DNA of 64,000 nucleotides from Patescibacteria group bacterium (lineage in GTDB: Bacteria; Patescibacteriota; Minisyncoccia; UBA6257; HR35), in the NCBI GenBank assembly GCA_030549895.1, contig JAUQQM010000001.1, positions 44,091-108,090 of the forward strand, read 5' to 3'. Below are positions 4,672-50,549 of this stretch, piece after piece; position 1 is the first letter of the stretch, and each line of letters opens with the position of its first letter. The notes below the pieces were generated by a model. It saw nothing but the letters and a program-made list of their open reading frames with translations. It searched no databases and was not told the origin of the DNA. The position numbers and the translations under genes were made by a program.

Positions 4672-4677
4672 CAAAAG

Positions 4678-9065: not shown

Positions 9066-9067
9066 GA

Positions 9068-12912: not shown

Positions 12913-13405
12913 AACTATACTTCAAAAATTCATAAAGTCCTATCAAAGTAAAAAATGTTAAAAATTTATCTAACCTTAAAAAATTAAAAACAAAAAAGGT
13001 CTGGCCTAAAATAAAAGAACTAAAAAGAAGGTTAAAGATTTTCTCTTTTTCGAGAATAAGAAAAATGAAAATAAAAATTAAAAACTCAACTAGATTTATA
13101 CCTGAAAAAGAAAGACCAAAAAAGGTGAAAATTTTTAATAGATCAAAATTCTGAGACCAATAAAAAATATGCAAAAGAAAGAAAAGAAAGCTTAAAATTA
13201 TCCCAAAAATTCCTTTTTCAAAGATAAAAATGAAAAGCAAATTTGAAAAAATGCTTTTTAAAATAAAGCTTATTTTGAAATTAAAATAAAAAGTACCTAC
13301 GAGGGTAAATAAAAAAACTAGAAAAGGAATTTTTTGAAAGTAATTAGCTAAAAGTAAAAATAAAAAAACCAGATCAAATATCAAGATTTTTGGCTTGAAT
13401 TGCAT
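12881..13405 (-). CDS. Polytopic hydrophobic membrane protein (174 aa), function unknown
   Basis: At least 5 TM helices. Overlaps gyrB 3' end by 32 nt and the ATP-cone gene 5' end by 32 nt. Confidence 0.45.
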   Translation of the reverse strand: MQFKPKILIFDLVFLFLLLANYFQKIPFLVFLFTLVGTFYFNFKISFILKSIFSNLLFIFIFEKGIFGIILSFLFFLLHIFYWSQNFDLLKIFTFFGLSFSGINLVEFLIFIFIFLILEKEKIFNLLFSSFILGQTFFVFNFLRLDKFLTFFTLIGLYEFLKYSYGKINLQTNK

Positions 13406-18618: not shown

Positions 18619-18751
18619 CTTGTAGATAAATTATGGAAAAAAATTATAAAGAAAATTATCAACAAGATATAAAGATTTTAAAATTTAAACGTTTTAAAAA
18701 GAAGCGCGTCTTGATTGGAATTTTAACATTTCACAATCAAGACAAGATTTT

Positions 18752-19855: not shown

Positions 19856-20048
19856 AAAAATTCAACTTAAAAAACCACAAGAATTTATTTTAGCTCAAGA
19901 AATTCAAAAAAATTTTCCAGGCTATAAAATAAGATTTAAAAAACAAGAAGATAAATTCATTTTTTACCTTCAAGATGGAGTTATTTATGAGGTTCTTAAA
20001 AATTTTTTAAAAGGAAAAAATATTAATTTTGAGATAAAGATTGAATAA
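19848..20048 (+). CDS. Small hypothetical protein (66 aa) after dnaN
   Basis: ORF only. Overlaps dnaN stop. Confidence 0.3.
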   Translation: MFKKIQLKKPQEFILAQEIQKNFPGYKIRFKKQEDKFIFYLQDGVIYEVLKNFLKGKNINFEIKIE

Positions 20049-34753: not shown

Positions 34754-35632
34754 TTATATCTTAAAAGTCTTTAAGAATTTTTTGAATTCATTTTTTAATT
34801 CTTTGTTTTTAAGAGCAAAATTTGCTATCGCTTTTAAATATCCTATTTTACTTCCACAATCGTAGCGAATGCCTTTAAATTTAAGACCATATACTGGTTT
34901 TATCTTTAAAAGTTCATTTAAAGCCTCACTAAGTGTAATTTCTTTTCCTTTTTTTGGTTTTAGTTTTTTTAAGATCTCGAAAATATCTGGTTCTAAAATG
35001 AATCTTCCAACAATAGCCAAATTTGAAGGAGCATCTTTAGCTTTTGGTTTTTCGAAAATCCTTTTAATTTTTAAAATATTTTTTTCAACTAAGACTCCTT
35101 CAATGATTCCATATTTTTCTACATCTTTTTTATTTACTTTTTCTAAAGCAATAACAGGACTTTTATACTTTTTAAAAATATTTATCATTTGCTCTAGACA
35201 AGGCATTCGGCTGTCAATAACATCGTCAGCAAAAAGGACAGCAAAGGGTTCGTTTTTTATTAAATGACTAGCACAAAGCAGAGCATGCCCACTTCCTAAA
35301 GGTTCTTTTTGTCTTACATAAGCAAAATTAGCTAATTTTGAGATAGCTCTTATTTCTTTTAAAAGGCGGTAATTTTTGTTTGAAATTAGTTTCAATTCAA
35401 TCTCGGGTGCATAATCAAAATAATCTTCAATTGCTCTTTTATTTCTTCCAGTGACAAAAATTATATTTTCAATTCCAGAATTTACTGCCTCTTCAACAAC
35501 ATACTGAATGACTGGTTTATCAATTAGAGGTAACATTTCTTTTGGTTGAGCTTTAGTTACTGGTAAAAATCTTGTTCCTAAGCCAGCTACAGGAATGATA
35601 GCAGTTTTAATAGTTTTGGTCATTTTTTGCAT
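34754..35632 (-). CDS. galU: UTP-glucose-1-phosphate uridylyltransferase
   Basis: [34 protein letters not shown] is the classic GalU N-terminus. Confidence 0.9.
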
Positions 35633-35926: not shown

Positions 35927-36625
35927 ATGAAGGAATTTAAAAAATTTGGAAAGGGTGAAAGAACTTTTGAGGACTATTTAAACTCACTAGCACAGACTTA
36001 TTTTCCTGGTAATCGAGAAAAAGATAAAAGAGCAAGGGAGTTATTTAAAAAAGAAATTCTCGGTTTAATTACCGACGAAGAAAAAAAGGAATTAGAAAGT
36101 TATTTTCAAGATCAAGAGAGAGAATTTTATAAACTTTTTGATCTTTCTTTAAAAAATCCTGAAAAATTTGTCTTAGTGAATATAAGCGAAGGAAAAATGA
36201 TTGAGGCTTCTGAAGAAGATGAAAAAACAATTTGGACATATGGGCTTGGTGGTTGTTATTCTTGTTTAATATTTGCTAAAAAAGAAAATAATAGTTTTTG
36301 TATTTTAACTCATTACCCACAAAGCGAAACAGAAGAACATTTAAAGCAAATAGAAAGATTAATTAAAGGGAAACCAGAGATAATCACTGCCGAAAGAAAA
36401 CTTACTTTAATTTTTAGTCCTTTACTAGCAGTCACCGGACCAATTAGTTTTCCTAAAAAATTAGAAATGATTTCTAATCATATAAAAAATTTATTTGGCG
36501 GAAGTGTGATTGAAAAATTTTATCCAATTGAACCTCTTGAGTGGGAAAACTATGGCCTTTTAATTGCTAAAATAGGTAAAGGATTAAGTTATAAAACTTG
36601 GTTTGAAGAAGAAAGTTTTGAATGA
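35927..36625 (+). CDS. Hypothetical protein (232 aa)
   Basis: ORF only. Confidence 0.4.
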   Translation: MKEFKKFGKGERTFEDYLNSLAQTYFPGNREKDKRARELFKKEILGLITDEEKKELESYFQDQEREFYKLFDLSLKNPEKFVLVNISEGKMIEASEEDEKTIWTYGLGGCYSCLIFAKKENNSFCILTHYPQSETEEHLKQIERLIKGKPEIITAERKLTLIFSPLLAVTGPISFPKKLEMISNHIKNLFGGSVIEKFYPIEPLEWENYGLLIAKIGKGLSYKTWFEEESFE

Positions 36626-36692
36626 GATTTTAAAGTTTGGAATTAAAAAGTGAAAAGACAATTTTGAATAAAAGTTTTTATGATAAAATTTT

Positions 36693-36761
36693 ATGATGAA
36701 AAAAATAGGCATTATCGGTCTAGGAATAGTTGGTAAAACCCAAGATGTTAAGATTAATTAA
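36693..36761 (+). pseudogene. 22-codon remnant of a Gfo/Idh/MocA-type NAD-binding oxidoreductase N-terminus (MMKKIGIIGLGIVGKT...stop)
   Basis: Rossmann GxGxxG fingerprint KIGIIGLGIVGK followed by a stop after 22 codons. It is in a different frame from the downstream ORF. Confidence 0.5.
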
Positions 36762-37155
36762 AAAATCAATTTTTGTTCTTAAGAATTATGGTTTGAAAGT
36801 TTTTTTGATTAAAGCTATAAAGTGGCCAATTAATAGAATAAATCTTCTTTTAAGAAAAGACTCTCATAACCAGGAAACCTTGGAAGAAGTTAAAAATATT
36901 TTAAGCGGTAATCAATTAGATTTTCTTTTTATTGATGGTGATCATACTTATGAAGGAGTTAAAAAAGATTTTGAAATGTATAGTCCTTTAGTTAGAAAAG
37001 GAGGAATCATTGCGTTTCATGATATTATAAATAAAGATCCCTTAAGGAAAGATATTGAAGTGCCTAAATTTTGGTCAGTACTTAAAAATCGCTACAGAAT
37101 TAACGAGATAATTTTTGATAAGTTTAATTATGGTATAGGTTTAATATTTTTATAA
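36745..37155 (+). pseudogene. 5'-truncated class I SAM-dependent methyltransferase (Methyltransf_24/TylF-like). Only the C-terminal half is present.
   Basis: ...LDFLFIDGDHTYEGVKKDFEMYSPLVRKGGIIAFHDI is the C-terminal MT24 core. The N-terminal SAM-binding GxGxG motif is absent. Confidence 0.5.
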
Positions 37156-37175
37156 GCTTAAATAATAATTTTAAG

Positions 37176-38201
37176 ATGAAAATTTCAGTAGTTGTACCAA
37201 CAATAAGAGAAAGTTCTATAAGAAGATTTATTGGTGAATGGGGAGAAATTTTTGATAAATATAAAATTAATTTAATTATTATTGAAGATAATCCTATTAA
37301 ATCTTTTGAAATAAATAAGAATTTAAAATTTCCAATCTTTCATTACAGTTGGGAGGATATAGAAAAAGATTTGGGAAAAGATAGTTGGATTATTCCAAGA
37401 AGAACTTCAGCAATTAAAAGTTATGGTTTTTGGAAAGCATATCAGATGAAAAGTGATATGATAATAGCTTTGGACGATGATTGTTACCCATTAGAGAATT
37501 ATATTAAAAACTTCAATAAGAATAATTTTATTAAATCTCATTATGATGCATTGTTTAAGAATACATACCGGGAAATAAAATGGGTTTCAACTATCAGATT
37601 AAAAGACAATATTAGGCCAAGAGGATTACCTTATAAACAAGTGGAAGATATTATTGATCCAAACAAGATTATTTTAAATCATGGTTTATGGGCAAATGTT
37701 CCAGATTTTGATGCTATTACTCAATTAAAATTTAAAAGATTCCCCAGAATTGAAAATTATTTTATTCAACAAATTATCCCTGTAGGGAAATATTTTCCAA
37801 TGTGTGGTATGAATTTAGCATGGAAACGGGAATTGACTCCAGTAATGTATTTTATGTTGATGGGTAAAGACAAAAATGAAAAACCTTGGGGTTTTGATAG
37901 ATTTGATGATATTTGGGCCGGAATTTTTATTAAAAAAATTTGTGATCATTTGGGTTTTAGGATAGTTTCAGGTTATCCGGTTATTTGGCATGATCGAGCA
38001 AGCGATCCTTATAAAAATTTAGAAAAAGAAAGGAGGGGTATAAAAATTAATGAATATTTATGGAAAGAGGTAGATAGGGTTAAATTAACTAAAGATAATT
38101 TAAAAGATTGCTATAGGGAGTTAGTTATTAAGCTTAAAATAAAGGGCGATTATTTTAAAAAATTGAAAAAATCAGTTAATATTTGGATAGAATTGTTTTA
38201 G
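37176..38201 (+). CDS. Reversibly-glycosylated-polypeptide / UDP-L-arabinopyranose mutase family protein (GT75, plant-type RGP/UAM homologue)
   Basis: Long collinear motif matches to plant RGP1 recalled from memory: VVVPTIRE, IALDDDCYP, HGLWANVPDFDAITQL, FPMCGMNLAW.RELTPVMYFMLMG, RFDDIWAGIFIKKICDHLG, IWHDRASDPYKNLEKE. Confidence 0.7.
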   Translation: MKISVVVPTIRESSIRRFIGEWGEIFDKYKINLIIIEDNPIKSFEINKNLKFPIFHYSWEDIEKDLGKDSWIIPRRTSAIKSYGFWKAYQMKSDMIIALDDDCYPLENYIKNFNKNNFIKSHYDALFKNTYREIKWVSTIRLKDNIRPRGLPYKQVEDIIDPNKIILNHGLWANVPDFDAITQLKFKRFPRIENYFIQQIIPVGKYFPMCGMNLAWKRELTPVMYFMLMGKDKNEKPWGFDRFDDIWAGIFIKKICDHLGFRIVSGYPVIWHDRASDPYKNLEKERRGIKINEYLWKEVDRVKLTKDNLKDCYRELVIKLKIKGDYFKKLKKSVNIWIELF

Positions 38202-38213
38202 TTTTTTAAAATC

Positions 38214-39122
38214 ATGAGAAAAAAATTAGGTGCAGGGATAGTAACTTATAACAAAAAAGAATTATTTCAAGAATGCTTAAATTCTTTATTAAATCAGACT
38301 TTTAAACCAGATAGTATTTATATATTTGATAATGCATCAACTGATGGCACAACAGAATTTATTTTAAGATTATTTTTTAATGATTTGGTCTATAACCAAG
38401 ACTGGATTAATAGTATTTTTAATAATGTAAGAATCTTTTATAAAAGAAATAATGAAAATATGGGAAGCTCTGTGGGTTTTTTTGAGCTTTCAAAAAAAAT
38501 GTTTGATGATGGGCATGAGTATATTTTGATTACGGATGACGATGTTTTATTTAAGGAAGATTATATAGAAAGATTGCTAAATTTTACAGAAAAAAATAAC
38601 TACAAAATGGTAACATCTTTAATGGTTGAGAATTTTAAAGATTTTAAAGTAAAAAGTGAAAGTCCTATTTTTGCTGGTGGTTTAGTTTCTAGAGATGTTT
38701 TTGAAAAAATAGGTTTTCCAGTTAATGATTATTTTATATATTGGGATGATGTTGAATTTGTTATTAGAGCTGAAAAAGCCGGCTTTAGAATACAAGTTTG
38801 TAAAGAGGCTTTTTGTATTCATGACCAATTTAGGTTTAATAAAGAGGTTATAAAAAAACAAATTAATTTTTTAGGATTTAAAAAAGAGTATTCTAATACA
38901 AATGATTGGAAATTTTATTATGCTTACAGAAATATGGTAATAACTTTAATAAAGCATAAAAAATTTTTTGATTTATTTGTAAAAATTATAAGAGCAATAA
39001 TTTTGGCTTTTATTTTTTTAATTTATAAAGAAATAAATAAATTTAGATTAATTTTATGGGGATTAAAAGATGGTTTATTAATGCGAAAAGGTAAAAATGA
39101 AAAAGTTTTCAAATTTAAGTAA
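38214..39122 (+). CDS. Family 2 glycosyltransferase (rhamnosyl/galactofuranosyl-transferase-like)
   Basis: GIVTYNKKE...IFDNASTDGT...ITDDDV motifs. Confidence 0.75.
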   Translation: MRKKLGAGIVTYNKKELFQECLNSLLNQTFKPDSIYIFDNASTDGTTEFILRLFFNDLVYNQDWINSIFNNVRIFYKRNNENMGSSVGFFELSKKMFDDGHEYILITDDDVLFKEDYIERLLNFTEKNNYKMVTSLMVENFKDFKVKSESPIFAGGLVSRDVFEKIGFPVNDYFIYWDDVEFVIRAEKAGFRIQVCKEAFCIHDQFRFNKEVIKKQINFLGFKKEYSNTNDWKFYYAYRNMVITLIKHKKFFDLFVKIIRAIILAFIFLIYKEINKFRLILWGLKDGLLMRKGKNEKVFKFK

Positions 39123-39130
39123 TAATTAAT

Positions 39131-40105
39131 ATGAAAAAACTATCTTTTATTATTCTAACCTATAACTCAGAAGACGATATAAAAGATTGTTTGGATTCTT
39201 TGTTAAAAAATTTTGATTCAAAAGAAGCAGAGATAATAATCTGGGATAATGATTCATCTGATAATACAAAAAAGATTTTAGAAGATTACAAAAAATTTGA
39301 TTTTATAAAAATTATTTTCAATAACTCTAATATTGGTTTTGCTGAAGGAAATAATGAAGCAAGTAAGTTTGCTAATGGTGAATATATTTGTTTGTTAAAT
39401 GCGGATACTATTTCGGATTACAAGGTTTTTAAGGAAATTTTATATTATATGGAAAATAATAAAGAAATAGGAATCGTTGGCCCTAAATGTGTTAGCGAAA
39501 ATGGTGTTATTCAAGAATCATACGGTTATTTTCCTACCATTCTAAGAGAATTTTTAGGTAAGTTTTTTATGTCATTATACCTAGAAAAAATACCTCTAAT
39601 AAAAAAACTTAAAAATAAATTATTATATCAAGATAATCTGAAAGAAGTTGATTGGGTTGGAGGAGCCTGTGCTATTATAAGAAAAAATGTATGGGATAAG
39701 ATAGGGGGTTTAGATGTTACCTACTTTTTTAGTAATGGTGATATGATAGACTTTTGTTATAAAGCAAAAAATTTAGGATATAAAGTAATTTATTATCCTT
39801 TAGTTTCTATAATTCATAAAGGAAGTCGTTCGGTTACTAAAAATCTTCAATCAAGAATAACTGGCTTGAAAAGTGGATATTTAGGAACACTTTATTTCTT
39901 TAGTCAACATAATAAAAGTTTAGGTTATGTTTATTTTGTTAAATTCTGTTTTATATTTATTTCTTTAACTAAAGGTATAATAGGTAGTTTGCTTATTGTT
40001 TTTAATAGAAAATTTAAGGATTTAGCTTTAAGTCATTTTTATGTTGCTTTGTTTTTATTCAAAAATTTTTTCAATAATAATTTTAAAAAATTATGCAAAG
40101 AATAA
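39131..40105 (+). CDS. Family 2 glycosyltransferase
   Basis: LSFIILTYNSEDDI...IIWDNDSSDNT; C-terminal TM helices. Confidence 0.75.
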   Translation: MKKLSFIILTYNSEDDIKDCLDSLLKNFDSKEAEIIIWDNDSSDNTKKILEDYKKFDFIKIIFNNSNIGFAEGNNEASKFANGEYICLLNADTISDYKVFKEILYYMENNKEIGIVGPKCVSENGVIQESYGYFPTILREFLGKFFMSLYLEKIPLIKKLKNKLLYQDNLKEVDWVGGACAIIRKNVWDKIGGLDVTYFFSNGDMIDFCYKAKNLGYKVIYYPLVSIIHKGSRSVTKNLQSRITGLKSGYLGTLYFFSQHNKSLGYVYFVKFCFIFISLTKGIIGSLLIVFNRKFKDLALSHFYVALFLFKNFFNNNFKKLCKE

Positions 40106-41166
40106 TAATTTGTTCTCCGTCAAAAAATAACATAGTTGGTGGCGTAGAAAGGTTTTGTTATTTATTAAAAGATATTTTAGTTAATAATAATTTTAACGTT
40201 GAAATAGTTAGCAAAGAAGATATAGAAAATAATATTTTTTGGAAAATTTTTAAAAAAATAAAAGGTTTAGATTTAATTATTTTAGGATATTTACTAGGGA
40301 AACTGGCTAATAAACTGAAACCAGATTTAGTTATTACCAATGGTTTGTATGGTTTTAGTACTAAAATTAAATCAATTAATATAGAACACGGAACTTTTGC
40401 TGGTGCTTCAGATAAAATAGATAAAAATATTTTTAAAAAAATAATAAGAAAATATATTTGGGGTTATTTTGAAAAATTAGCTGTTCAAAAAGCAATAAAA
40501 GTTGTTGCTGTTTCAAAATATACCGAAGATTTAATTAAGAAATATTATAAAAGAAAAGACATAGAAGTTATTTTAAATGGGGTTGATATAAATTTATTTT
40601 CAAAAAAAGATAAATTTGAATCAAGAAAGATTTTCAACTTACCCCAAGATAAAAAATTAATTCTCTTTGTTGGTAGATTAAGCTACCAAAAATCTCCCGA
40701 AATTATTTATGAATTAGCAAAAAAATTTGAAAAAGATGATATATTTTTTGTTTTTGCAACTGATAGAGTTTTAAATTGGAATTTAAAAAACGCTATTTTT
40801 CTTTTAAATGTTGATTATCAAAAATTACCATTTTTATATTCAGCTTGTGATGTTTTTATTCTTCCTTCCAAACACGAAGGTTTTGCTTTTACTTTAATAG
40901 AAGCAATGGCGTGTGAAATTCCTTTTGTTATTTCAAAAGTAGGAGGTGCTTATGAAATTTTAGAAAAAACACCAGAATTAAGTGAGTTTGTTTTAGATAA
41001 TTTAAATGTTGATGAATGGTACAATAAAATAAAAAAAGTTTTATTTTTGGAAGAAAAGAAATTGGAGAAAATTAGAAAAATAGAAAGAAAGTTTGTCTTA
41101 GAAAATTGCTCTTTACAAATTTTTGAAAGAAAATATTTAAATTTGATAATGGGTATAATTAAATAA
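40093..41166 (+). CDS. Family 4 (group 1) glycosyltransferase
   Basis: C-terminal GT-B motifs FVGRLSYQKSPE...EGFAFTLIEAMACEIPFV. Confidence 0.75.
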   Translation: MQRIIICSPSKNNIVGGVERFCYLLKDILVNNNFNVEIVSKEDIENNIFWKIFKKIKGLDLIILGYLLGKLANKLKPDLVITNGLYGFSTKIKSINIEHGTFAGASDKIDKNIFKKIIRKYIWGYFEKLAVQKAIKVVAVSKYTEDLIKKYYKRKDIEVILNGVDINLFSKKDKFESRKIFNLPQDKKLILFVGRLSYQKSPEIIYELAKKFEKDDIFFVFATDRVLNWNLKNAIFLLNVDYQKLPFLYSACDVFILPSKHEGFAFTLIEAMACEIPFVISKVGGAYEILEKTPELSEFVLDNLNVDEWYNKIKKVLFLEEKKLEKIRKIERKFVLENCSLQIFERKYLNLIMGIIK

Positions 41167-42042
41167 ATGATTGACGTAATAATTCCAACAAGAAATAGAA
41201 CTAATAGTTTAAAGAAAGTTTTGCCTACTTATTTAAGGCAGAAATATTTAAATAAGATAATAATTATTGATGATGCCTCTGATGAAAATAATAGAAGAGA
41301 ACTTGAAAATTTATTAAAAATTGACAATAGAATTATTTATAAGAGATTTGAAAAACAAATATTTCTTCCTCAAGCAAGAAATGAAGGGATAAATCTTTCA
41401 ACAGCCGAATATATTTTTATGGGAGAAGATGATGTTTATTTAGAAGATAATCATCTTGAAATTCTGGTAGATTTAATGAATAAATATAACGCAGATTTAA
41501 TTGCTGGAAGGAGAATTTATATTAAAGAAAATCAAAACTTTGAAGAAGCTAAAAAAGAGGCTGATAAAGATAAAAGACCAATATTTACTCGATTTCCATT
41601 AGAAGGGTATTTTGAGAGATATTTTGAGGAAGAGATCTTAGATCCTTTATTTCTTCATTCAAATGTTTTAGTAAAAAGAAAGGTGTATGAAAATGTTTTA
41701 TATGATCCTTGGTATAGAGGAAATTCCTTTAGAGAAGATTTAGATTTTTTCCTTAGAGTTTCTGAGTTGGGGTTTAAAATGGTTTTAACTAATAAAACTT
41801 CTTGTTTTCATATAAAAGATTCGATTAATAAAAAAGGTGGGGCAAGAATGAAAAGATTGATTTATGAATACTATGTATGGAAAAATACATTTTATTGTTT
41901 TTACAAAAATAGAAGGATTTTAAGAAAAAAATTAAAGATAAAATTTCCCTTACTTCATGCTTTCTTATCTTTAATTTTGAGGTATCCTTACGCTTTATAT
42001 AGAAGAATAATATGGAAAATTCATCAAAGAAAAAACTATTAA
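41167..42042 (+). CDS. Family 2 glycosyltransferase
   Basis: IDVIIPTRNRTNSL...IIIIDDASDE. Confidence 0.7.
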   Translation: MIDVIIPTRNRTNSLKKVLPTYLRQKYLNKIIIIDDASDENNRRELENLLKIDNRIIYKRFEKQIFLPQARNEGINLSTAEYIFMGEDDVYLEDNHLEILVDLMNKYNADLIAGRRIYIKENQNFEEAKKEADKDKRPIFTRFPLEGYFERYFEEEILDPLFLHSNVLVKRKVYENVLYDPWYRGNSFREDLDFFLRVSELGFKMVLTNKTSCFHIKDSINKKGGARMKRLIYEYYVWKNTFYCFYKNRRILRKKLKIKFPLLHAFLSLILRYPYALYRRIIWKIHQRKNY

Positions 42043-43256
42043 TTTTTCTTCACAAGTTCCCTTATCCAGATAATGACAGCACTAAATTTAGGATTTTAAA
42101 TTCTGTAATTTTACCTCTCAGACAATATTTTGATATTAAAATTTTTGTAGTTACTTATGAAAATATAAAAAAAGAGGATTTGAATTTTCTAAAAAATATT
42201 GCTCCTTTAGAGTTTTATATTTTTCCTAAGTGGAGATTTTTTTTAAATATTTTATTAAACTTTTTTAGCTTTAGACCCTTTCAGACAGAAATGTTTTTTT
42301 TTAGAAATATTTTTTTGAAATTTCAAGAAGAAGCTAAAAAATTTGATGTAATATACATTCATACTGTCCGTTTAGGTAAATACATAGAAAAATTGTCTCC
42401 AGAATTAAGAGAAAAGATAATTCTTGATTTTAATGATTCAATTGCGATGCATTATTTAAATGGCTGGAAATATTATCCATGGCATTTAAAATTTGGAATA
42501 TTATTTGAGGGTTATAAATTATATTTTTATGAAAAGTTACTACTTAAAATTTTGAATAATTTTACGATAGTTTCAGAAGTAGATAAAGAATTTATTCTTA
42601 AAAATGTTAAAGAGGATTATATGAAAAATAAAAATTTTATTGTTACTTACATAAGCGCAAAAGTTAAAGACATCGAAAAATCAAATGTCGTAGATAATAA
42701 AAATGCCAGTAAATACATTTGCTTTATGGGTAATTTGAGATATTATCCTAATTGTGAGGGTATTATTCATTTTTTAAAGGATATTTGGCCATCCATTAAA
42801 AGAGAGTTTAAAGATTTAGAGTTTTTAATAATCGGCGATGTTGATAATTCCTTAAAAAAGAAATTTAAAAAAATAGATGGAGTTAAATTTTTAGGTTTTG
42901 TAGCTGACCCTACTTTAATAATTTTGAAAAGTTTAGCCTTTGTCTCACCGGTTAGAATTGGGGCTGGTTTACAAGGAAAAATTGTTGAAGCTATGGTATT
43001 GGGTCAAATTGTTATTTGTTATTATTTGAATATAAAAAAAGTGAATGGATTTGAGGATAGAAAAAATATTATGATATGTAAAGATTTTAACCCCACCGAA
43101 TGGGTAGAAGCTTTAAAATTTATTATAAATAATCGAGAAGAAGCAGAAAAAATTAAAAAAATTGCTAAAAATTTAGCTTTAACTGAATTTACTCCCCAAA
43201 AGGTTTGGGAAAAATACTTTTTTATTTTTAAAAACGTCTCTAATTATGAAGAATAA
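42012..43256 (+). CDS. Glycosyltransferase, group-1-like (GT-B)
   Basis: C-terminal half ...FMGNLRYYPNCEG...GAGLQGKIVEAMVLGQIV resembles GT4 donor-binding domain. Confidence 0.55.
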   Translation: MENSSKKKLLIFLHKFPYPDNDSTKFRILNSVILPLRQYFDIKIFVVTYENIKKEDLNFLKNIAPLEFYIFPKWRFFLNILLNFFSFRPFQTEMFFFRNIFLKFQEEAKKFDVIYIHTVRLGKYIEKLSPELREKIILDFNDSIAMHYLNGWKYYPWHLKFGILFEGYKLYFYEKLLLKILNNFTIVSEVDKEFILKNVKEDYMKNKNFIVTYISAKVKDIEKSNVVDNKNASKYICFMGNLRYYPNCEGIIHFLKDIWPSIKREFKDLEFLIIGDVDNSLKKKFKKIDGVKFLGFVADPTLIILKSLAFVSPVRIGAGLQGKIVEAMVLGQIVICYYLNIKKVNGFEDRKNIMICKDFNPTEWVEALKFIINNREEAEKIKKIAKNLALTEFTPQKVWEKYFFIFKNVSNYEE

Positions 43257-44157
43257 AAATATATTAATTGTTAAAATTGGAGCGTTGGGCGATGTGGTAA
43301 GAACAACACCTATTTTGAGGGTTTTAAGAGGAAATAGAATATACTGGTTAACAAGCAAAAAGGCTATTCCCCTTTTGCCATCTAAAGGGTATTTTATAAA
43401 AAAAATTTTTTCTGTCGAAGAAATAAATAAGCTTAAAAATATTAAATTTGATTTGGTGATTAATTTAGAAGAAGACCTGGAAATTGCTAAATTTATAACG
43501 AAAGAGTTAATTTATAAAAAAATTATTGGTGTATTTTACTCTGAGAAAGAAAATAAATTAAGATATACAAAAGAATCTAAGAAATGGTACGATATGAGTT
43601 TAATTTCAGAGCTTGGTTTAAAGAAGGCTAATAAACTGAAATGGGAAAATAAATTATCTTATCAGGAAATTTTATTTTCAATGATAGGTAAAAAATTTAA
43701 GGGTGAGGAATACGTAATTAACTATAAAGTTCGAAATAATTTTAAAAATAAACCCAAAATAGTAGCTATAGAAAAAAATGTAGGAGAAAGATGGCCGATG
43801 AAAAGATGGCCTTTTTATCATTTTTTAAAACCTAAATTAGAAAAGATGGGTTATAAAGTTTTTTATTTAAAATATTACCGAGACATTATAGATTATGTAA
43901 GAGAAATAGATAAATGTGATATTTTAATTTGTGGCGATACTTTAGCAATGCATTTAGGTTTAGCTCTAAAAAAGAAAATTTTAGCTATATTTATTTGCAC
44001 ATCTCCTTCTGAAATTTATGATTACGGCATGATGGTAAAAGTTGTTAGCCCAAAACTTAAACAAGCTTTTTATAAGAAAAGTTATGATAGAAAATTAGTT
44101 TCTGCTTTAAAAGTTAAAGATGTTCTAAGTAAATTTTATGAATTGTTAAAGCTTTAA
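43246..44157 (+). CDS. Family 9 glycosyltransferase (heptosyltransferase-like)
   Basis: N-terminus ILIVKIGALGDVVRTTPIL; C-terminal ...ILICGDTLAMHLGLAL (GT9 signature). Confidence 0.65.
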   Translation: MKNKNILIVKIGALGDVVRTTPILRVLRGNRIYWLTSKKAIPLLPSKGYFIKKIFSVEEINKLKNIKFDLVINLEEDLEIAKFITKELIYKKIIGVFYSEKENKLRYTKESKKWYDMSLISELGLKKANKLKWENKLSYQEILFSMIGKKFKGEEYVINYKVRNNFKNKPKIVAIEKNVGERWPMKRWPFYHFLKPKLEKMGYKVFYLKYYRDIIDYVREIDKCDILICGDTLAMHLGLALKKKILAIFICTSPSEIYDYGMMVKVVSPKLKQAFYKKSYDRKLVSALKVKDVLSKFYELLKL

Positions 44158-44516: not shown

Positions 44517-45194
44517 TTAAGTTATGGTTATGATATTGGTTTTTAACTTTAAGAGATCTAAAGTAGTCTTTATTCCATGTTTTATTGGAAAAAGTTTTGA
44601 CTCGCCCGCGCGTGGATAATAAGGAATATTTATTTCATCAAATTTGAATCCAGCTAAAATTGTTTTTATTTTTAATTCTTGAGATAAAGGCATATCGCCT
44701 GATTCAAGATTTATTTTCTTTAAAATTTCTTTTTTAAAAATCATCATTCCTGATTGAGAATCTTTTAGTTTTAAGCCAAAAAGAAAATTTGCTAATAAAG
44801 TTAAAAATTTATTTCCTAAAACTCTTGTAAAATTTAAAGAATTTTTATTTTGTAAAGGAAAACGAGAGCAATTTAAAAAATCTAAATTATTTTTTTCTAA
44901 ATATTCCACAACTTCTAAAATTTTTTCTCCTGGATATTGAGCATCAGCATCTAGGGTTACAATAATATCTCCCTTTGCTTCTCGGAAACCTCTTTGTAAA
45001 GCATAACCATAACCTTGTTTTGTTTCTTTTACAACTTTTGCTCCCAATTTTTTCGCAACTTCTGCTGTTTTGTCACTTGAGTTATTGTTAACAACGATAA
45101 TTTCTAGTATTTTTTCTGTTTTTGGTATTTTATTTAAAGTTTTAGCTATGCCTCTTTCCTCGTTATAAGCTGGTATAACTATAGAGATTTTCAT
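44517..45194 (-). CDS. Family 2 glycosyltransferase (polyprenyl-phosphate hexose transferase, DPM1/ArnC-like)
   Basis: ISIVIPAYNEERGI...VVNNNSSDKTAEVA...TLDADAQY. Confidence 0.75.
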   Translation of the reverse strand: MKISIVIPAYNEERGIAKTLNKIPKTEKILEIIVVNNNSSDKTAEVAKKLGAKVVKETKQGYGYALQRGFREAKGDIIVTLDADAQYPGEKILEVVEYLEKNNLDFLNCSRFPLQNKNSLNFTRVLGNKFLTLLANFLFGLKLKDSQSGMMIFKKEILKKINLESGDMPLSQELKIKTILAGFKFDEINIPYYPRAGESKLFPIKHGIKTTLDLLKLKTNIITIT

Positions 45195-45279: not shown

Positions 45280-45987
45280 ATGAAATGGATTTTGACTGTT
45301 ATTTTTAATTTTTTAGTTTGTATTTTTCTTTTATTTTGGGGTTTTTTAGCTGGATATAATCTTAGAAAGATTACAGCAAGGCTTTACGATAAATATCAAC
45401 TTTATCTTTTAGAGAAAGAATTTTCTAAAACTCCCTATGCAATTGAAATGAGAAATGACTTTTTTGGAGGGAATACTCCTCGGGAGGCTTGGAAAAAGTT
45501 TAGAAACGAACTTCAAGCAGGAAATTTAGATAAGGCAGTTAACTATTTTTGGGGTATTTGGGGAGATGAAAAAGAAAAAAAGCGCTGGAGAGAATATTTA
45601 GAAGAAAAGAAAGATAGCATTTTAAAGTATCCTGAAAAGTTAGTTTTTTCTAAAGAGCTTTTAAATGAAGATCTTTTTGACGAAGAAGTAGGCGCGATTT
45701 TAGCTAGAAAAGAGAATGGAAAACTTTATGGCGGCGAAATTGTTTTTAGAAAAAATCACTATACTAATCTTTGGAAAATAAGAGATATTGATGTAGATGA
45801 AGATTTTTCTTATAGTTTAGAAGAATATTATAAAGAAGCCTACAAAGGTTTTGAAAATTTTGTTCATTGGAAATTTACAGAAGAAGAGAAAGTAGAACAA
45901 TCAAAATTGATTACCCAACATTATTATAGAGATAAAATGCTTGTTGAAAAAGCTTATGAAATCTTATATGGAGAAAAATTAAAGTAA
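45280..45987 (+). CDS. Hypothetical membrane-anchored protein
   Basis: N-terminal TM. Stop overlaps the start region of the giant gene (operon). Confidence 0.4.
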   Translation: MKWILTVIFNFLVCIFLLFWGFLAGYNLRKITARLYDKYQLYLLEKEFSKTPYAIEMRNDFFGGNTPREAWKKFRNELQAGNLDKAVNYFWGIWGDEKEKKRWREYLEEKKDSILKYPEKLVFSKELLNEDLFDEEVGAILARKENGKLYGGEIVFRKNHYTNLWKIRDIDVDEDFSYSLEEYYKEAYKGFENFVHWKFTEEEKVEQSKLITQHYYRDKMLVEKAYEILYGEKLK

Positions 45988-45989
45988 TT

Positions 45990-48900
45990 ATGACAATAAA
46001 ATTATTTTTAATTTTATTGTCACCGATAATAATTTTAGGTAGTTTACTTTCTTATTCTCCTTATAATACTCATCAGGTTTTAACTGAACAAATAGCAGAA
46101 TTTTATAATCTAACTACTAATGAAAGAAGACTGACAGCTCAAGAAATTGAGTGGATGAAACAAGGAGCTGCTGATGAAGATTATCCACCAAGATGGTACA
46201 ATCATTTTTATAATCCTTTAACTGGTAAAGGTTGGACGGGTTCAAGATTAGGTAAACTTAATGCTCAACATGTTTTAAATAAATTGAAAGAATTAGGTTT
46301 AATGGTTTATGATCCAGTAAGTTCTATTGAGTGGGCAAAAAATCATTATTTTCAAGCAAGAGAAGATGATTATTGGACTTGGGATTTTGGTATAGCAAAA
46401 TATGGTGAAGGTGATTATGAAAAGGCATTCAAAACATTAGGACATATTTTGCATCTTTTAGAAGATCTAACTGTACCAGAACATGTAAGAGACGATGCTC
46501 ATCCAGATTTAGGAATTATTGGAGAGATATTTAAGAATCTTCAAGATGGTTCTCCTTATGAATCATGGGCTAAAGAATATACTCTTTCAAATTACAATAA
46601 AATTAATCTAGCTAAAGAGCTTTTTGAAAAAGGCCAAATTCCTTATGAAGTTAGTTCTCTTGAAGAAGCTTTTCATAATCTTGCTTTATTTGTAAATGCT
46701 AGCTTTTTCAGTCCTGATACAATAGGAGTTCCAGAATTTCCTGAACCAGATATAAATAAACTTGAGATAAATAAAGATCTTGTTTACTATAAAAATACAG
46801 TCGTGGCTAAACTTGAAAAAGAAGGGATAAAAGTGGTTAAAGAAATAGCTCCTTATATTTGGGAGAAAGTTACTCCAGAACTTTTAAAATATGGAGCAGG
46901 TTTAGTTAATTTGTTTTTGAAAGAAGCTGAAAATACAAAACAAGATGCTGATATTATGAGTTATTATATCTACAGAACTTCACTAACTCAAATGGGGGAA
47001 AGAATATTAAGTTGGAATATTTATCATACTTCACCTTTGATGCAAATTATAAGATTCACTAATTCAATAGATAAAGTAAAAGGTAAAATTACTCTTTCCT
47101 ATTATAGTTTGAAAGACAAATTTTTAAAGAAGACTAATGAAGTTAATGAGGATCAAATAAAAAGTGAAGAAATATCTCAAAAGGATGTAAGTTTATGGAA
47201 AAATCAAGTAATTGAAGATAGTAACCTTTCAGTTAAAGAAGAATCAAATAAAATTGAAGAAGAAAAAAGTTTTCAAAAAGAAGGAAAAGTTGCTGGATTA
47301 ATTTCAGAAGAGCCCAAAAAGATTCTTGAGGACAAAATTGAAATTTCTGAAAATAAAGTCACTGAAAATAAAATTTCTCAAAAAGACTCTAAAGTAAATA
47401 AAATAGAAACTTTAAAACCCTTACCAACATTAATTAAAAAACAAAAATCTGATGAAAAGCCTGAAGAAGATAAAGAAAATAAAAAATTACAAGACTCGAA
47501 CAAAAAAGACGCTCGTCAGCCGATTGTAATTGGTGGAGGTTATAGTTCAACTCAACAATCTGACTCTAGTAGTTCAAAATGCAAATTTGATAGTTCAGAG
47601 AAGTTTCCTAAAGTAATAATTAATGCAATAAAATTTGAAGGAGAAAATTCTAAAGATGAATTTATAGAACTTTATAATCCAAATAATTTTGAAGTTAATC
47701 TTTCTTGCTGGTCATTAGCGAAAAAGACAGCTGGAACTCAAAATACTGAATTTAGTCCTTTAGTTACAAAAAAAGAATTTAGTGGTAAGATTCCGCCTTA
47801 TAGTTTCTTTTTAATAGTTCATCCATCTTCATCTTTAAAAGAAAAAGACTTAGAGTATTCATCATTTTCTTATAGTATCTCTAAAAATAATGTTGTTGCT
47901 CTTTTAGATCCTAACAATCAGATTGTCGATCTTGTTGGTTTTGGTGACAATAAAGAGAAAATTAAGGATTTTGAAAAAGAACCATTTATTTTTCAAGACT
48001 TACCCACAGGGGCTTTTATAGAAAGAATTAATATGAAAGATTCAGATGACAATAGTCAAGATTTTCAAATAACAAAGCGATCTCCCTATAATTCAAAAAT
48101 TTCAAAAAGACCAAAAGAAAAAATTTACAAATTAAGCGAACTTGCAAGTTTGAGTCCAGATGATTTTCAAATTTTTCCTCAAAATAGAAAGCTTTTAATC
48201 TATGTTAAAGAACCATATTTTCCTGATGATCTTCAGCCAGTAAGTAATATTTTAATTTTTTCAACCTCAATTCAACCAGTCTCTCTTGAACTTACTTATA
48301 AAGGGAAAGAAAACACTTTTGTTTTAGATTTTTGCCAGGAAGGAAATTATGAGGCAGAACTTAAAATATATGATAGCGATAATGAACTTAACTTTGTAAG
48401 TTTTAAGACAAACTTTACTATAGAAAACTCAGCTTGCACCTTAGAGAGTTTCCCAAAAATTTTAATAAGCGAAGTTTTAATTGAAACAGAAACAAACTCT
48501 AAAGATGAATTTATAGAACTTTATAACCCTAATGACTTTGAAATTGATCTTTCAAATTATAAAATAGTAAAGAAAACATCAAGTGGCTCCCAGAAGACAA
48601 TACTTTCTTCAAATACTCAACCAAAACTTGAAGGTAAAATTCCACCTTATGGATACTTTTTAATTACTAATTCAAGCTCTACTTTTGTAGATATTGCTGA
48701 TTTAGTTTATCCTTATTCAAGTTCAAAAGCCTTAGCCGATAATAATACAATTTTAATTTTAGACTTAAATAATAAAGTTATTGATAAACTTGGTTGGGGC
48801 AGCGCAAAAGACTATGAGGGAAGTCCTTCTAATATTAAAGATGGTTATAGTCTAGAAAGAAAAGTTACCAAAGATTCAACTCCAGAAAGTTTAAGAAACT

Positions 48901-50549
48901 TCGAGGCTAATTTTGGAAATGCTTACGATACTGATAATAATTCTTTTGATTTTGTTCTTCAACCAAATCCAAAACCAGAAAACAAAAAAATTTCTAAACC
49001 ACTGCCAACAAGACCAACTGGTTTTAAAATTAAAACTTATTTTTCTGATCTAAATCTTGAGGGAAAATATTTGAGTTGGTATGAAAAAGTAAAAGAAGAA
49101 AATCAAATAATAGAGTTAATTTGGAATCAACCATTGATTAATGAATTTCAAGGTTACTCTTATAGAGTTGGATATAAATTTAATAATCAAGAGTCTTTAA
49201 ACTATCTTCAAGTTCAAGAGCCTATAAGAGATGATTTTTCTCTTGTTAGGATTCCTTTAAATGTCTGCCAACTAAGATCAGGACCTTATGAATTTTTTCT
49301 TGAGGTTTATAATGGCGAAGTCTCAAAAACTCTTGCCTCAACTACTTTTTTTAAAGATCCTTTTCTTTTTCCTTGTCCACCAAAAGCACCAGAAGTAAAG
49401 TTAGAGTTTGTAAATTTAAATAACGCTCAATTTCCTCCTCTTCCCGTATGGTACTCATCAAATTATTTTCTCAAACTCACTCTTAAAGATCCAGAAGATA
49501 CAGATTTTTTAGCTACACCTATATCTTGGCAGGAAATACCTCAATATAAAAGTTTTTATTTTATAAAAGTTGCTACTAGTCCAGAGCTTTTAAGTGATGA
49601 AAATTTTTTTAAAAGAAAAGATCTTTGGGGGATAGACTATGTAAGATCTGATAGTCCAAATAATCCTAGCAATCAAGCTTTAGAACCAGGGCAGAGAATA
49701 ATTTATATAGATCTTTTTGATTTTGAAAAAGGTAAAACCTACTATCTTGGTATTAAAGCATTCAGTGTTTATGATTTTCTTTACTATATGGAACAAGATA
49801 AACAAACTTTTAGGGATTATCCTTTAGAACCTTGTAAGGTAGGTAGCTTTCGGGCAAGATTTAAAGATGGCCTTATTAATATTACAAATAACTGCATCTT
49901 TACTCATTATAATGGATATTATAGTAATTTTTACGATCGAATAAGTTATCCCCAAAACACCGGAATTTGGCAAGATCCAAATTTTTATGATACCGAGAAT
50001 CATTTAGAACCAATACCTAATATTCCACCTTCAAATTGGCAAGAAGTACCCCTAGAAAAACATGTTCAAAATTATCCTCATCTTCTTTCTTCAACTACGA
50101 TTGTTACTTTTACAGTTCCAGAAGATCTACCGATTCCTGATTCTTCAAGATTTTTTAAGTATGCAAAATTTTTTCAAGAAGATGGCTCTATTTATTTTGA
50201 ATTTACTCCAAGAAACAGAATTCCTCAAGTCTGGCGAATTATGGTCTCGCTTAAGACAGTAAAAGATAACACTTTCACCCCAAATATTCCTGGAGAAGAA
50301 AATTTTTATAATATGGTAACTCCTATTTTTACAATTTTTAGCGGTCCAGTAAGAGATTTTCCTTCTAAAGATCAAGATGGAAATGATCTTGTCTATAAAT
50401 TTAAAGTTTTAGATATTCCTCAAGATTATATTTTTGACGAAAATGATATCTTTTCTCTTGTTTTAGAATATTCCCCATATGGATATCCACGACCAAGTCT
50501 TCATTTTGATGATTTTAAATATAAATTTAACAACGAATACAGAGAATAA
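45990..50549 (+). CDS. Giant (1519 aa) secreted/surface protein: N-terminal Zn-dependent phospholipase C / nuclease-P1-like domain, K/E-rich linker, two lamin-tail (LTD) domains, C-terminal beta-rich region
   Basis: WYNHFYNPLTGKG and LGHILHLLEDLTVPEHV match PLC zinc motifs (HFYDP; LGxSLHYLGDxNQPMHA). Two copies of ...NSKDEFIELYNPN.FE..LS...KIPPY..FLI. Confidence 0.6.
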   Translation: MTIKLFLILLSPIIILGSLLSYSPYNTHQVLTEQIAEFYNLTTNERRLTAQEIEWMKQGAADEDYPPRWYNHFYNPLTGKGWTGSRLGKLNAQHVLNKLKELGLMVYDPVSSIEWAKNHYFQAREDDYWTWDFGIAKYGEGDYEKAFKTLGHILHLLEDLTVPEHVRDDAHPDLGIIGEIFKNLQDGSPYESWAKEYTLSNYNKINLAKELFEKGQIPYEVSSLEEAFHNLALFVNASFFSPDTIGVPEFPEPDINKLEINKDLVYYKNTVVAKLEKEGIKVVKEIAPYIWEKVTPELLKYGAGLVNLFLKEAENTKQDADIMSYYIYRTSLTQMGERILSWNIYHTSPLMQIIRFTNSIDKVKGKITLSYYSLKDKFLKKTNEVNEDQIKSEEISQKDVSLWKNQVIEDSNLSVKEESNKIEEEKSFQKEGKVAGLISEEPKKILEDKIEISENKVTENKISQKDSKVNKIETLKPLPTLIKKQKSDEKPEEDKENKKLQDSNKKDARQPIVIGGGYSSTQQSDSSSSKCKFDSSEKFPKVIINAIKFEGENSKDEFIELYNPNNFEVNLSCWSLAKKTAGTQNTEFSPLVTKKEFSGKIPPYSFFLIVHPSSSLKEKDLEYSSFSYSISKNNVVALLDPNNQIVDLVGFGDNKEKIKDFEKEPFIFQDLPTGAFIERINMKDSDDNSQDFQITKRSPYNSKISKRPKEKIYKLSELASLSPDDFQIFPQNRKLLIYVKEPYFPDDLQPVSNILIFSTSIQPVSLELTYKGKENTFVLDFCQEGNYEAELKIYDSDNELNFVSFKTNFTIENSACTLESFPKILISEVLIETETNSKDEFIELYNPNDFEIDLSNYKIVKKTSSGSQKTILSSNTQPKLEGKIPPYGYFLITNSSSTFVDIADLVYPYSSSKALADNNTILILDLNNKVIDKLGWGSAKDYEGSPSNIKDGYSLERKVTKDSTPESLRNFEANFGNAYDTDNNSFDFVLQPNPKPENKKISKPLPTRPTGFKIKTYFSDLNLEGKYLSWYEKVKEENQIIELIWNQPLINEFQGYSYRVGYKFNNQESLNYLQVQEPIRDDFSLVRIPLNVCQLRSGPYEFFLEVYNGEVSKTLASTTFFKDPFLFPCPPKAPEVKLEFVNLNNAQFPPLPVWYSSNYFLKLTLKDPEDTDFLATPISWQEIPQYKSFYFIKVATSPELLSDENFFKRKDLWGIDYVRSDSPNNPSNQALEPGQRIIYIDLFDFEKGKTYYLGIKAFSVYDFLYYMEQDKQTFRDYPLEPCKVGSFRARFKDGLINITNNCIFTHYNGYYSNFYDRISYPQNTGIWQDPNFYDTENHLEPIPNIPPSNWQEVPLEKHVQNYPHLLSSTTIVTFTVPEDLPIPDSSRFFKYAKFFQEDGSIYFEFTPRNRIPQVWRIMVSLKTVKDNTFTPNIPGEENFYNMVTPIFTIFSGPVRDFPSKDQDGNDLVYKFKVLDIPQDYIFDENDIFSLVLEYSPYGYPRPSLHFDDFKYKFNNEYRE

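Follow-up and report, generated by a model that had tools for sequence, protein, structure and literature searches.

The window analysed here, a 64,000-nucleotide stretch from a Patescibacteria group bacterium (assembly GCA_030549895.1, contig JAUQQM010000001.1, positions 44,091 to 108,090), carries a gene for a protein of glycosyltransferase family 75 (GT75), the family of the reversibly glycosylated polypeptides (RGPs) and UDP-arabinopyranose mutases (UAMs). The open reading frame (ORF) begins with ATG and has no internal stops:

37176..38201, plus strand: GT75 protein (RGP/UAM family), predicted NDP-sugar pyranose-furanose mutase, 341 amino acids; assigned by PF03214, residue map, AlphaFold2 model and dN/dS

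The functional assignment is based on sequence, structure prediction and gene context, and from these we infer that the protein is a mutase, which nucleotide sugar it uses, what the adjacent GT2 glycosyltransferase does and where the glycan is located. It is highly probable that the gene encodes an active-type GT75 NDP-sugar pyranose/furanose mutase, which supplies a furanosyl donor to this GT2 within a Patescibacteria surface-glycan operon.

The 341-amino acid protein matched the Pfam model PF03214 (RGP) with 147.2 bits (E=9.2e-43, gathering cut-off 23.8), essentially from end to end (protein residues 3-340, profile positions 6-336 of 342), and none of the NCBIfam models matched. The best matches were not unrelated GT-A proteins lacking PF03214, and the GT75 homology claimed in a preliminary description of this DNA is borne out. 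An Arabidopsis RGP1-like sequence was used only as bait for fetching plant and algal UAMs from the databases; the reference set consisted of the proteins of Raphanus (P0268), Miscanthus (P0282), Physcomitrium (P0307), Chlamydomonas (P0341) and Coccomyxa (P0370). Over its full length, the window protein was 34 % identical to Raphanus UAM2 (P0268) in BLASTP (E=3e-51). The blocks HGLWLNIPDYDAPTQL, FPMCGMNLAF..MYFGLMG, RYDDMWAGWCIKVICDHLG and SKASNPFVNLKKE, quoted earlier as plant RGP/UAM motifs, were all verified in these database proteins; the IWH in front of the last block reads IYH in P0268 and IWH in P0282, P0341 and P0370.

The residues for Mn2+ binding, diphosphate binding and catalysis have been defined in the structure paper of the bacterial GT75 enzyme MtdL (PMC9937993). 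We transferred them to the window protein using an alignment that comprised the five plant/algal UAMs, 22 bacterial relatives, rice UAM2 (8cid) and that part of MtdL which the PDB alignments show:

MtdL D109/D110/D111: window D100/D101/D102 (DDD motif)
MtdL R159 (glycosylated, nucleophilic Arg; OsUAM1 R158): window R149, within RPRGLPY
MtdL D195 (Arg-orienting Asp): window D177
MtdL R257 (beta-phosphate Arg): window R242
MtdL D260 (proposed general base): window D245
MtdL H287 (Mn ligand): window H272
MtdL R289: window R274

All residues found essential by mutagenesis of MtdL (PMC9937993) are present in the window protein and invariant in 23 relatives. The arginine that is reversibly glycosylated in plant RGPs, singled out earlier as a residue worth checking, is conserved as Arg149 (OsUAM1 Arg158, MtdL Arg159). 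As an internal check, the alignment recovers the plant numbering of the same paper (D182, D246). An AlphaFold2 model built from a 23-sequence alignment (pLDDT 91.4, pTM 0.91) has the GT75 architecture, with a GT-A Rossmann-like N-domain, a GT75-specific core and a C-terminal helical region. In a Foldseek search, only MtdL (TM 0.74-0.75) and rice UAM2 (TM 0.72) came out as close matches, and other GT-A enzymes remained below 0.45.

Rice UAM2 and AtRGP5 belong to the non-catalytic class-2 RGPs, which do not bind UDP (PMC9937993). The rice protein shares the fold (E=9.6e-19), but has N, T and R in the columns of the third DDD Asp, Arg257 and His287. The window protein keeps all three residues, which argues for the active type. 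Pairwise dN/dS values against the relatives in L080, L001, L002 and L004 were between 0.09 and 0.17 (L numbers denote comparison loci, W coordinates the window), and the gene is under purifying selection. Judged by alignment and predicted structure, the window protein is an intact, selected and active-type GT75 enzyme. An alternative is that it has no mutase role in vivo and serves as a self-glycosylating primer, an arginine glycosyltransferase or a non-catalytic partner of class-2 type. GT75 proteins do autoglycosylate an arginine and were first described in this way (PMC9937993), the class-2 proteins of plants lack activity and function within complexes (PMC9937993, PMC6861824), and some relatives have two GT75 genes per locus (L002, L085, L003). 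In contrast, the window has a single GT75 gene, the residues missing in class 2 are all present, and strong purifying selection together with the conserved GT2 pairing described below fits a donor-supplying enzyme, so that we regard a non-mutase role as very improbable.

The gene stands at the head of a run of seven co-directional genes and is accompanied by a convergent GT2 gene and a divergent galU:

38214..39122, plus strand: GT2, conserved partner of the mutase and candidate furanosyltransferase (PF00535)
39131..40105, plus strand: GT2 (PF00535, 88.9 bits), syntenic in L004, L080, L088, L090, L095 and L114
40093..41166, plus strand: GT4 (PF00534 and PF13439), syntenic in relatives
41167..42042, plus strand: GT2 (PF00535, 83 bits), syntenic in relatives
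42012..43256, plus strand: GT4-type, stp1-like (PF13692 and PF00534; TIGR03087-like, 108 bits, below cut-off)
43246..44157, plus strand: GT9-like, weak partial match (PF01075, 34.2 bits vs cut-off 22, C-terminal part only)
44517..45194, minus strand: convergent GT2, polyprenyl/dolichyl-phosphate hexose transferase type, DPM1/AglJ/GtrB-like (PF00535, 111.7 bits)
34754..35632, minus strand: GalU, UTP-glucose-1-phosphate uridylyltransferase for UDP-glucose supply (TIGR01099, 362 bits vs cut-off 326.8)

This agrees with the gene order given in the preliminary description (three GT2, two GT4 and one GT9 gene behind the GT75 gene, plus the convergent GT2), the GT9 match being the weak one; its orthologues are 57-61 % identical and occupy the same position in L088, L095 and L114. 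The seven genes are separated by 12, 8, -13, 0, -31 and -11 nt, and such gaps indicate an operon-like organisation; together with the family match, this arrangement goes far beyond what chance would give. A scan for promoters and terminators in this AT-rich DNA stayed near chance (66 promoter-like sites vs 61.5 expected, 3 terminator-like sites vs 2.1). The galU gene lies 1.5 kb upstream of the GT75 gene, divergent from the operon, and orthologues of it are found near GT75 in L009 (71 %) and L114 (67 %). For the convergent GT2, the NCBIfam models for a dolichyl-phosphate hexose transferase (5.8e-36) and AglJ (1.1e-32) both scored below cut-off. The counterpart of this 225-amino acid protein in L001 (88 %) forms the N-terminus of a 720-amino acid protein (18719-20881), whose remaining ~550 residues have no Pfam match.

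The GT2 directly behind the mutase gene shows a weak C-terminal likeness to the NCBIfam GlfT1 model (8.6e-13, below cut-off) and to the galactofuranosyltransferase structure 9dtp (3.8e-4). A GT2 of this type follows the GT75 gene in 16 of 22 window-clade loci, in 15 of them within ~50 bp, counts that include near-duplicate populations such as L004/L090 and L005/L085. It also abuts GT75 in metagenome-assembled genomes (MAGs) of Planctomycetota, Eisenbacteria and Dormibacterota. The GT2 at 38214..39122 is likely the furanosyltransferase for the mutase product.

By analogy with MtdL and the plant UAMs, the enzyme would depend on Mn2+ and Arg149 would attack C1 of the NDP-pyranose, with Asp177 orienting Arg149 and Asp245 serving as general base. 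The diphosphate would be held by Asp102 and His272 via Mn2+, and by Arg242. The ring would then open and reclose through O4, and an NDP-furanose would be released. With UDP-beta-L-arabinopyranose as substrate, the product UDP-L-arabinofuranose would be passed to the GT2 encoded 12 nt downstream, and five further glycosyltransferases of the operon would build the furanose into a cell-surface glycan.

Which nucleotide sugar is used can be approached from the binding pocket. Plant UAMs act on UDP-L-Arap (where Arap stands for arabinopyranose) and poorly on UDP-D-galactopyranose (UDP-D-Galp), and MtdL and Hyg20 act on GDP-L-galactose (GDP-L-Gal) and GDP-L-fucose (GDP-L-Fuc) (PMC9937993, PMC6861824). 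The five sugar-pocket positions of the window protein are identical to those of all five plant/algal UAMs and do not reproduce the sugar contacts of MtdL:

Window: S78, C103, G211, M212, S276
P0268: S91, C113, G216, M217, S277
MtdL: D87, N112, S228, Q229, H292

Outside the window clade, Ser78 occurs in only a few other lineages, and Asp is the residue of most other bacterial relatives at this position. At the site of MtdL T13 the window protein has the plant state, Pro8, and its N-terminal nucleotide-binding domain aligns with the plant proteins and not with MtdL; a PDB query with the N-terminal part only, aimed at the base-binding residues of MtdL, gave no match.

Gene context points in the same direction only within the window clade: a batch Pfam scan showed heterogeneous upstream neighbours and no dominant partner across the whole family. 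In orthologous loci, the GT75 gene is preceded by genes for a UDP-glucose 6-dehydrogenase-like (UGDH-like) protein, a short-chain dehydrogenase/reductase (SDR) and others:

L003: UGDH-like, SDR, GT75, with gaps <15 bp
L087: UGDH-like, SDR, GDP-mannose 3,5-epimerase (GME), FkbM-type methyltransferase, GT75, GT2
L009: GT75 preceded by GalE-like (72 % to that of L001), UGDH-like and SDR, and with GalU downstream
L088: UGDH-like just upstream of GT75, then a window-type operon
L114 (660-kb contig): UGDH-like, SDR, methyltransferase remnant, GT75-GT2-GT2-GT4-GT2-GT4-GT9, GalE-like (43 %), GalU (67 %)
L001: UXS/ArnA-like SDR and UDP-hexose 4-epimerase (2e-99 to 4zrm) ahead of GT75

The UGDH-like protein is nearest to UDP-glucose 6-dehydrogenases (1.4e-19 vs 9e-13 for GDP-mannose dehydrogenase) and retains the motifs NPEFLREA and GGKCLPKD. 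The SDR carries the pattern SSREVYG...YSASK, which we take to be typical of dehydratase/decarboxylase-type SDRs and not of simple epimerases. The usual pathway from UDP-Glc via UDP-GlcA and UDP-Xyl to UDP-L-Arap runs through GalU, UGDH, a decarboxylase and a 4-epimerase. The joint occurrence of GalU, the UGDH-like protein, the SDR and a 4-epimerase in orthologous loci therefore favours UDP-L-Arap as substrate, and we give this substrate, with UDP-L-arabinofuranose as product, an even chance.

The short UGDH-like proteins (274-279 amino acids), which consist of the N-terminal and central domains with the catalytic Cys motif, recur upstream of Patescibacteria GT75 genes:

L003:3280-4101: UGDH-like
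L087:712-1548: UGDH-like
L088:4206-5042: UGDH-like
L009:~4400-5196: UGDH-like
L114:7826-8655: UGDH-like

In L114, which comes from an NCBI MAG, frame breaks interrupt each of the genes for the UGDH-like protein, the SDR and the GT4 (7826-9573 and 12919-14000), probably because of assembly indels. Decay of the UGDH-like and SDR genes into pseudogenes was considered for this locus and rejected, since the core GT4 gene is frameshifted as well.

In the window itself, the region upstream of the mutase gene contains the remains of this module:

36696..36764, plus strand: 22-codon stub of a UGDH-like gene, MMKKIGIIGLGIVGKTQDVKIN*, from direct sequence reading
36730..37155, plus strand: remnant methyltransferase, 141 amino acids (PF13578/PF04989, C-terminal part only)

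The N-terminus of the stub agrees with the UGDH-like protein of L003 (MKKIGIIGLGITGK). In nucleotide alignments, W36675-36734 matches the L009 UGDH-like gene at its 5' end, and from 36745 on the window aligns to the L009 methyltransferase, 1.7 kb further along; this jump indicates that a ~1.7-kb deletion removed the UGDH-like gene and the SDR following it from the window. The remnant methyltransferase is internally deleted in comparison to the 260-amino acid version of relatives; in blastn, W36754-36860 matched L004 2415-2520 and W36846-37140 matched L004 2882-3176. L001 has the same stub and remnant (93 % over 534 nt). Positions 36552-37175 of the window can be described as a recombination/deletion scar. 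The upstream flank of the window is 99.5 % identical in nucleotides to L002, which then diverges into GME-X-Y-GT75, and the GT75 genes of the two differ with dS ~0.56. A nearly identical flank next to a diverged cassette indicates a glycan-diversity hotspot at which very close strains have exchanged cassettes.

The wider surroundings of the operon are bacterial, judging from the housekeeping genes in the window (dnaA, dnaN, gyrB, PBP1A, RodA/FtsW, PilB, PNPase and several aminoacyl-tRNA synthetases), and the genes flanking the GT75 locus are common to the window and L001. The window has a GC content of ~27 %, which is lower in the operon region from 36000 to 44000 (0.23-0.25 vs 0.26-0.32). The same region shows a strong positive GC skew (0.28-0.39) relative to the rest of the window; gene orientation flips at ~35.7 kb, at the minimum of the cumulative skew, and dnaA lies at 17.2 kb. 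Behind the convergent GT2, a 235-amino acid ORF (45280-45987) has no confident family match. Directly after the glycan operon, a 1519-amino acid protein with two lamin-tail domains is encoded (45990-50549), and a second protein with this domain (248 amino acids) at 8319-9065; both are probably large surface proteins. A Bac_transf enzyme, an initiating polyprenyl-phosphate sugar-phosphate transferase, is encoded at 419-1702 on the minus strand, 35 kb from the operon, and is a possible primer for the glycan. At 55110-59668, a co-directional block forms a module for the salvage of mannose-1-phosphate; it encodes two mannoside phosphorylases of family GH130, a phosphomannomutase of eukaryotic type and a PGI/PMI of bifunctional type.

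Several observations weigh against UDP-L-Arap as substrate. The UGDH-like protein lacks the usual C-terminal domain, and the decarboxylase-type activity of the SDR is a guess from its motifs. By tblastn, there is no UDP-Glc dehydrogenase, UXS or 4-epimerase in the 64-kb window, nor does it contain an extended SDR. With the UGDH-like and SDR genes deleted and none present elsewhere in the 64 kb, the precursor would have to be supplied from elsewhere in the chromosome. Residues proposed to select uracil are Pro27, Asp54 and Asp90 (PMC9937993), and two of the three base-selecting positions are MtdL-like in the window protein. These are T77, in place of the GDP-blocking plant Asp and similar to the guanine-contacting S86 of MtdL, and probably N39, which possibly corresponds to MtdL N42, another guanine contact, in an alignment that is tentative because of a one-residue gap. 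As far as the alignments tell, the protein resembles plant UAMs in its sugar pocket, and its base pocket is ambiguous. Furthermore, plant UAMs also convert UDP-D-Galp, so that GalU and the GalE-like proteins fit UDP-galactofuranose (UDP-Galf) equally well (PMC9937993, PMC6861824), and a true GME (1e-97 to Arabidopsis GME, 2c59), the enzyme that makes the MtdL substrate GDP-L-Gal, lies within 10 kb of a window-type GT75 gene in L002, L085, L087, L050, L067 and L021, four of which (L087, L050, L067 and L021) have no second GT75 gene.

Two other substrates must be weighed on this basis. The first is UDP-alpha-D-galactopyranose or UDP-D-galacturonate: the mutase would be a flavin-independent substitute for Glf and the downstream GT2 a galactofuranosyltransferase. 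D-Gal, D-GalA and L-Ara have a common C1-C4 configuration, and a plant-like pocket therefore fits all three. D-Galf is a frequent component of bacterial glycans. GalU lies near GT75 in the window, 4-epimerases of the GalE type lie near it in L001, L009, L095 and L114, the downstream GT2 is weakly similar to GlfT1 and to a galactofuranosyltransferase structure, and no flavoenzyme of the size of Glf was seen among the annotated ORFs of the window. For OsUAM1 and AtRGP2, conversion of UDP-D-Galp has been described (PMC9937993, PMC6861824), but the plant enzymes are inefficient on UDP-Gal (PMC6861824). Moreover, no GalE is encoded in the window, and the recurrent module of UGDH-like protein and decarboxylase-like SDR would remain unexplained, unless the product is UDP-GalA. 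We consider a galactose-type substrate unlikely.

The second is GDP-beta-L-galactopyranose or GDP-L-fucopyranose, in which case a mutase of the MtdL/Hyg20 type would be fed by GME and contribute to an L-galactofuranose glycan. Those bacterial GT75 enzymes that have been characterised all work on GDP-L-Gal or GDP-L-Fuc (PMC9937993), and GME followed by a GT75 mutase is the established L-galactofuranose route in A201A biosynthesis (PMC6678494). GME is uncommon in bacteria, and its presence near window-type GT75 genes in six loci speaks for this substrate, as do the MtdL-like residues T77 and, probably, N39. The phosphomannomutase, PGI/PMI and GH130 mannoside phosphorylases of the window, 17-21 kb downstream, would fit as well. 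However, GME was found in only 6 of 113 loci and by tblastn is missing from the window, in which no guanylyltransferase was seen either. In addition, the sugar contacts of MtdL are not kept, and the variants D87S and Q229A abolish the activity of MtdL on GDP-L-Fuc, while T13P, which introduces the proline found in the window protein, lowers its GDP affinity ~28-fold (PMC9937993).

In L002 (1288-2220) and L085 (1258-2184), the gene directly after GME encodes a separate, divergent GT75 paralogue of 311 amino acids without a Pfam hit. Its only PDB matches are to MtdL (2.7e-14); it has the signatures DDDN and NSQNT, with Ile at MtdL D87 and Gln at MtdL H287. In both loci, one operon encodes this MtdL-type paralogue and a window-type GT75, and their differing pockets speak for a separate substrate of each. 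GDP-L-Gal would more naturally be consumed by the paralogue. GME as the direct precursor enzyme of the window-type mutase is weakened by this finding and not fully rejected; the four loci with GME but without the paralogue keep GDP-L-Gal in play. An early count of 19 loci, derived from a single-linkage SDR cluster (24 members) taken as GME, was discarded because this cluster is heterogeneous and includes few true GMEs. Altogether, a GDP-sugar substrate appears quite unlikely for the window protein, and UDP-L-Arap stays our favoured candidate.

A furanose-containing surface glycan, as suggested in the preliminary description, is the most reasonable product of the operon. Its example of arabinofuranose goes further than the window itself, where the precursor genes amount to GalU and the UGDH-like stub.

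The same description had called bacterial GT75 members rare and the protein plant-type, and had raised inter-domain transfer. The GT75 entries of CAZy in 2019 came from plants (109), archaea (43) and bacteria (9) (PMC6861824), and in 2023 there were 308 entries altogether (PMC9937993). In contrast to this impression of rarity, a HMMER scan that covered 1.84 billion cluster representatives exhaustively yielded 1360 clusters at 50 % identity with E<=1e-3, mostly prokaryotic or metagenomic, and 336 GT75 clusters with E<=1e-30. A word-indexed search found 1683 GT75 clusters at 90 % identity, and a strict pattern scan with one genome per species detected GT75 in at least 175 genomes. The 79 loci kept from the pattern scan are all from MAGs, belonging to Patescibacteria, Planctomycetota, Chloroflexota, Acidobacteriota, Ignavibacteriota, Gemmatimonadota, Nitrospirota, Myxococcota and Actinomycetota; one Thermoplasmata archaeon is among the kept loci. 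Two bacterial members, MtdL and Hyg20, both GDP-sugar users, had already been characterised (PMC9937993). Among the papers of the library searched, none ties GT75 to Patescibacteria. According to a 2019 review, the third DxD motif reads DYD in plants, DLD in bacteria and DVD in archaea (PMC6861824). The window protein has DFD, which places it in a clade not among the CAZy entries surveyed in 2019.

The nearest relatives are encoded in L080 (94 %, metagenome), L001 (89 %, a Patescibacteria MAG with a 302-kb contig) and L002 (88 %), followed by proteins of Patescibacteria/Paceibacterota MAGs and metagenomes with 71-74 % identity. Together with the flanking genes common to L001, these relatives identify the host as a member of the Patescibacteria (CPR). 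In a neighbour-joining (NJ) tree of 174 sequences, the window protein falls into a terminal Patescibacteria clade nested among prokaryotic and metagenomic sequences, and plant class-1 and class-2 proteins lie together on a single long branch in another part of the tree. In 100 NJ bootstraps of a set of 69 taxa, the plants were monophyletic in 100/100 and the window clade was recovered in 86/100 replicates; the two were sisters in 0/100. The NJ tree was rooted on a partial MtdL sequence, which puts the direction of descent between plants and prokaryotes beyond its reach. Identity over trimmed columns was 35-37 % to plant class 1, 27 % to MtdL, 23 % to 8cid and 41-57 % to other bacteria. If anything, plant GT75 looks like one branch of a prokaryote-dominated radiation. 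A look-up of cluster members returned no taxonomy for the plant-like 'D-S' clade.

These data also bear on the idea that the gene is a plant-type RGP recently gained from a plant or alga. The motif-level likeness to plant class-1 UAMs and the plant-like sugar pocket would agree with such a transfer, but the protein is only 34-37 % identical to plant proteins vs 41-57 % to other bacterial and 71-94 % to Patescibacteria relatives. The tree topology and the spread of the family among mostly prokaryotic or metagenomic clusters speak against it too, and the base composition of the gene (24-27 % GC) fits the host. Nothing points to a recent move from plant to bacterium, and we hold this origin to be so improbable that it deserves hardly any weight. 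Overall, the preliminary description is correct in family and probable function and overstated rarity and the plant link; the gene adds a member from an uncharacterised clade of bacteria to the known GT75 family and does not represent a new type of system.

Some relatives deserve mention in their own right. L003 (Paceibacterota) has two full-length PF03214 genes, at 5025-6038 on the plus and 8876-9895 on the minus strand, with 71 % and 50 % identity to the window protein; in the second, Asn-Ala takes the place of T77 and S78. GT75 relatives are also encoded on 65 IMG/VR viral contigs (L116-L180). P0199, a GT75 protein with the exact plant-like Asp-Ser dyad, is encoded on L115 (JGI Ga0604669_0000230, 63 kb); the contig also carries a terminase-nuclease domain and numerous small co-directional ORFs that have no annotation. 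Phages may carry GT75 mutases, although such contigs may also be misclassified or include provirus flanks.

Among known systems, the plant class-1 UAM/RGP proteins (OsUAM1/3, AtRGP1-3; GT75, EC 5.4.99.30) stand close to the window protein. They belong to the same Pfam family with 34-37 % full-length identity and share the DDD motif, R149 (R158), D177 (D182), R242, D245 (D246) and H272, the pocket residues S78, C103, G211, M212 and S276, and Pro8. The reaction, UDP-L-Arap to UDP-L-Araf, is probably the same, a reading backed by the UDP-pentose genes in orthologous loci. The window protein differs in its first and third DxD motifs (EDN instead of DGD, DFD instead of DYD) and, where the plant proteins have Asp90, Arg and Lys, it has T77, K81 and R274. 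As a cytoplasmic bacterial enzyme encoded in an operon, it contrasts with the plant enzyme, which is Golgi-associated and serves the cell wall; no class-2 partner is encoded in the window, and the protein stands outside the plant clade. MtdL (Marinactinospora thermotolerans, A201A) and Hyg20 (Streptomyces hygroscopicus), bacterial GT75 mutases for GDP-L-Gal and GDP-L-Fuc, serve antibiotic biosynthesis in Actinobacteria, in contrast to the window gene at the head of a Patescibacteria envelope-glycan operon. MtdL has the fold, the catalytic residues and the presumed Arg-mediated, Mn2+-dependent mechanism in common with the window protein, but can be aligned only from residue ~70 on and differs in its sugar contacts. 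The FAD-dependent UDP-galactopyranose mutase Glf/UGM is a functional analogue, contracting the ring of a UDP-pyranose via a covalent C1 adduct to give the furanose donor for envelope glycans (PMC9937993, PMC6861824). It is not a member of the family, its fold and cofactor being unrelated (flavin vs Arg plus Mn2+).

Donors of L-arabinofuranose have a central role in the cell walls of plants and also, made by another route, in those of mycobacteria. The bacterial GT75 mutases that have been characterised provide GDP-furanoses for two antibiotics. A broader picture is possible, although we put it forward tentatively and with more doubt than confidence. The window clade would represent a widespread, flavin-independent furanose-donor pathway of uncultured bacteria, making UDP-L-Araf for the Patescibacteria envelope, or UDP-D-Galf or UDP-GalAf without Glf, a product that may be new for GT75 or for these organisms. 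The plant UAMs would be an offshoot of a prokaryotic, possibly also phage-borne, radiation, and relatives with two paralogues in one operon, an MtdL-like one beside GME and a plant-like one beside the GT2, would make two furanose donors per glycan. If the clade indeed makes UDP-L-Araf or UDP-Galf, metal- and arginine-dependent mutase chemistry would be a mainstream bacterial route to furanoses and the origin of the plant UAMs would be recast as prokaryotic. Such small, soluble bacterial enzymes would give access to scarce NDP-furanoses, for which the plant UAMs express poorly. For the Patescibacteria, which live attached to host cells, the enzyme would offer a first biochemical handle on their surface glycans.

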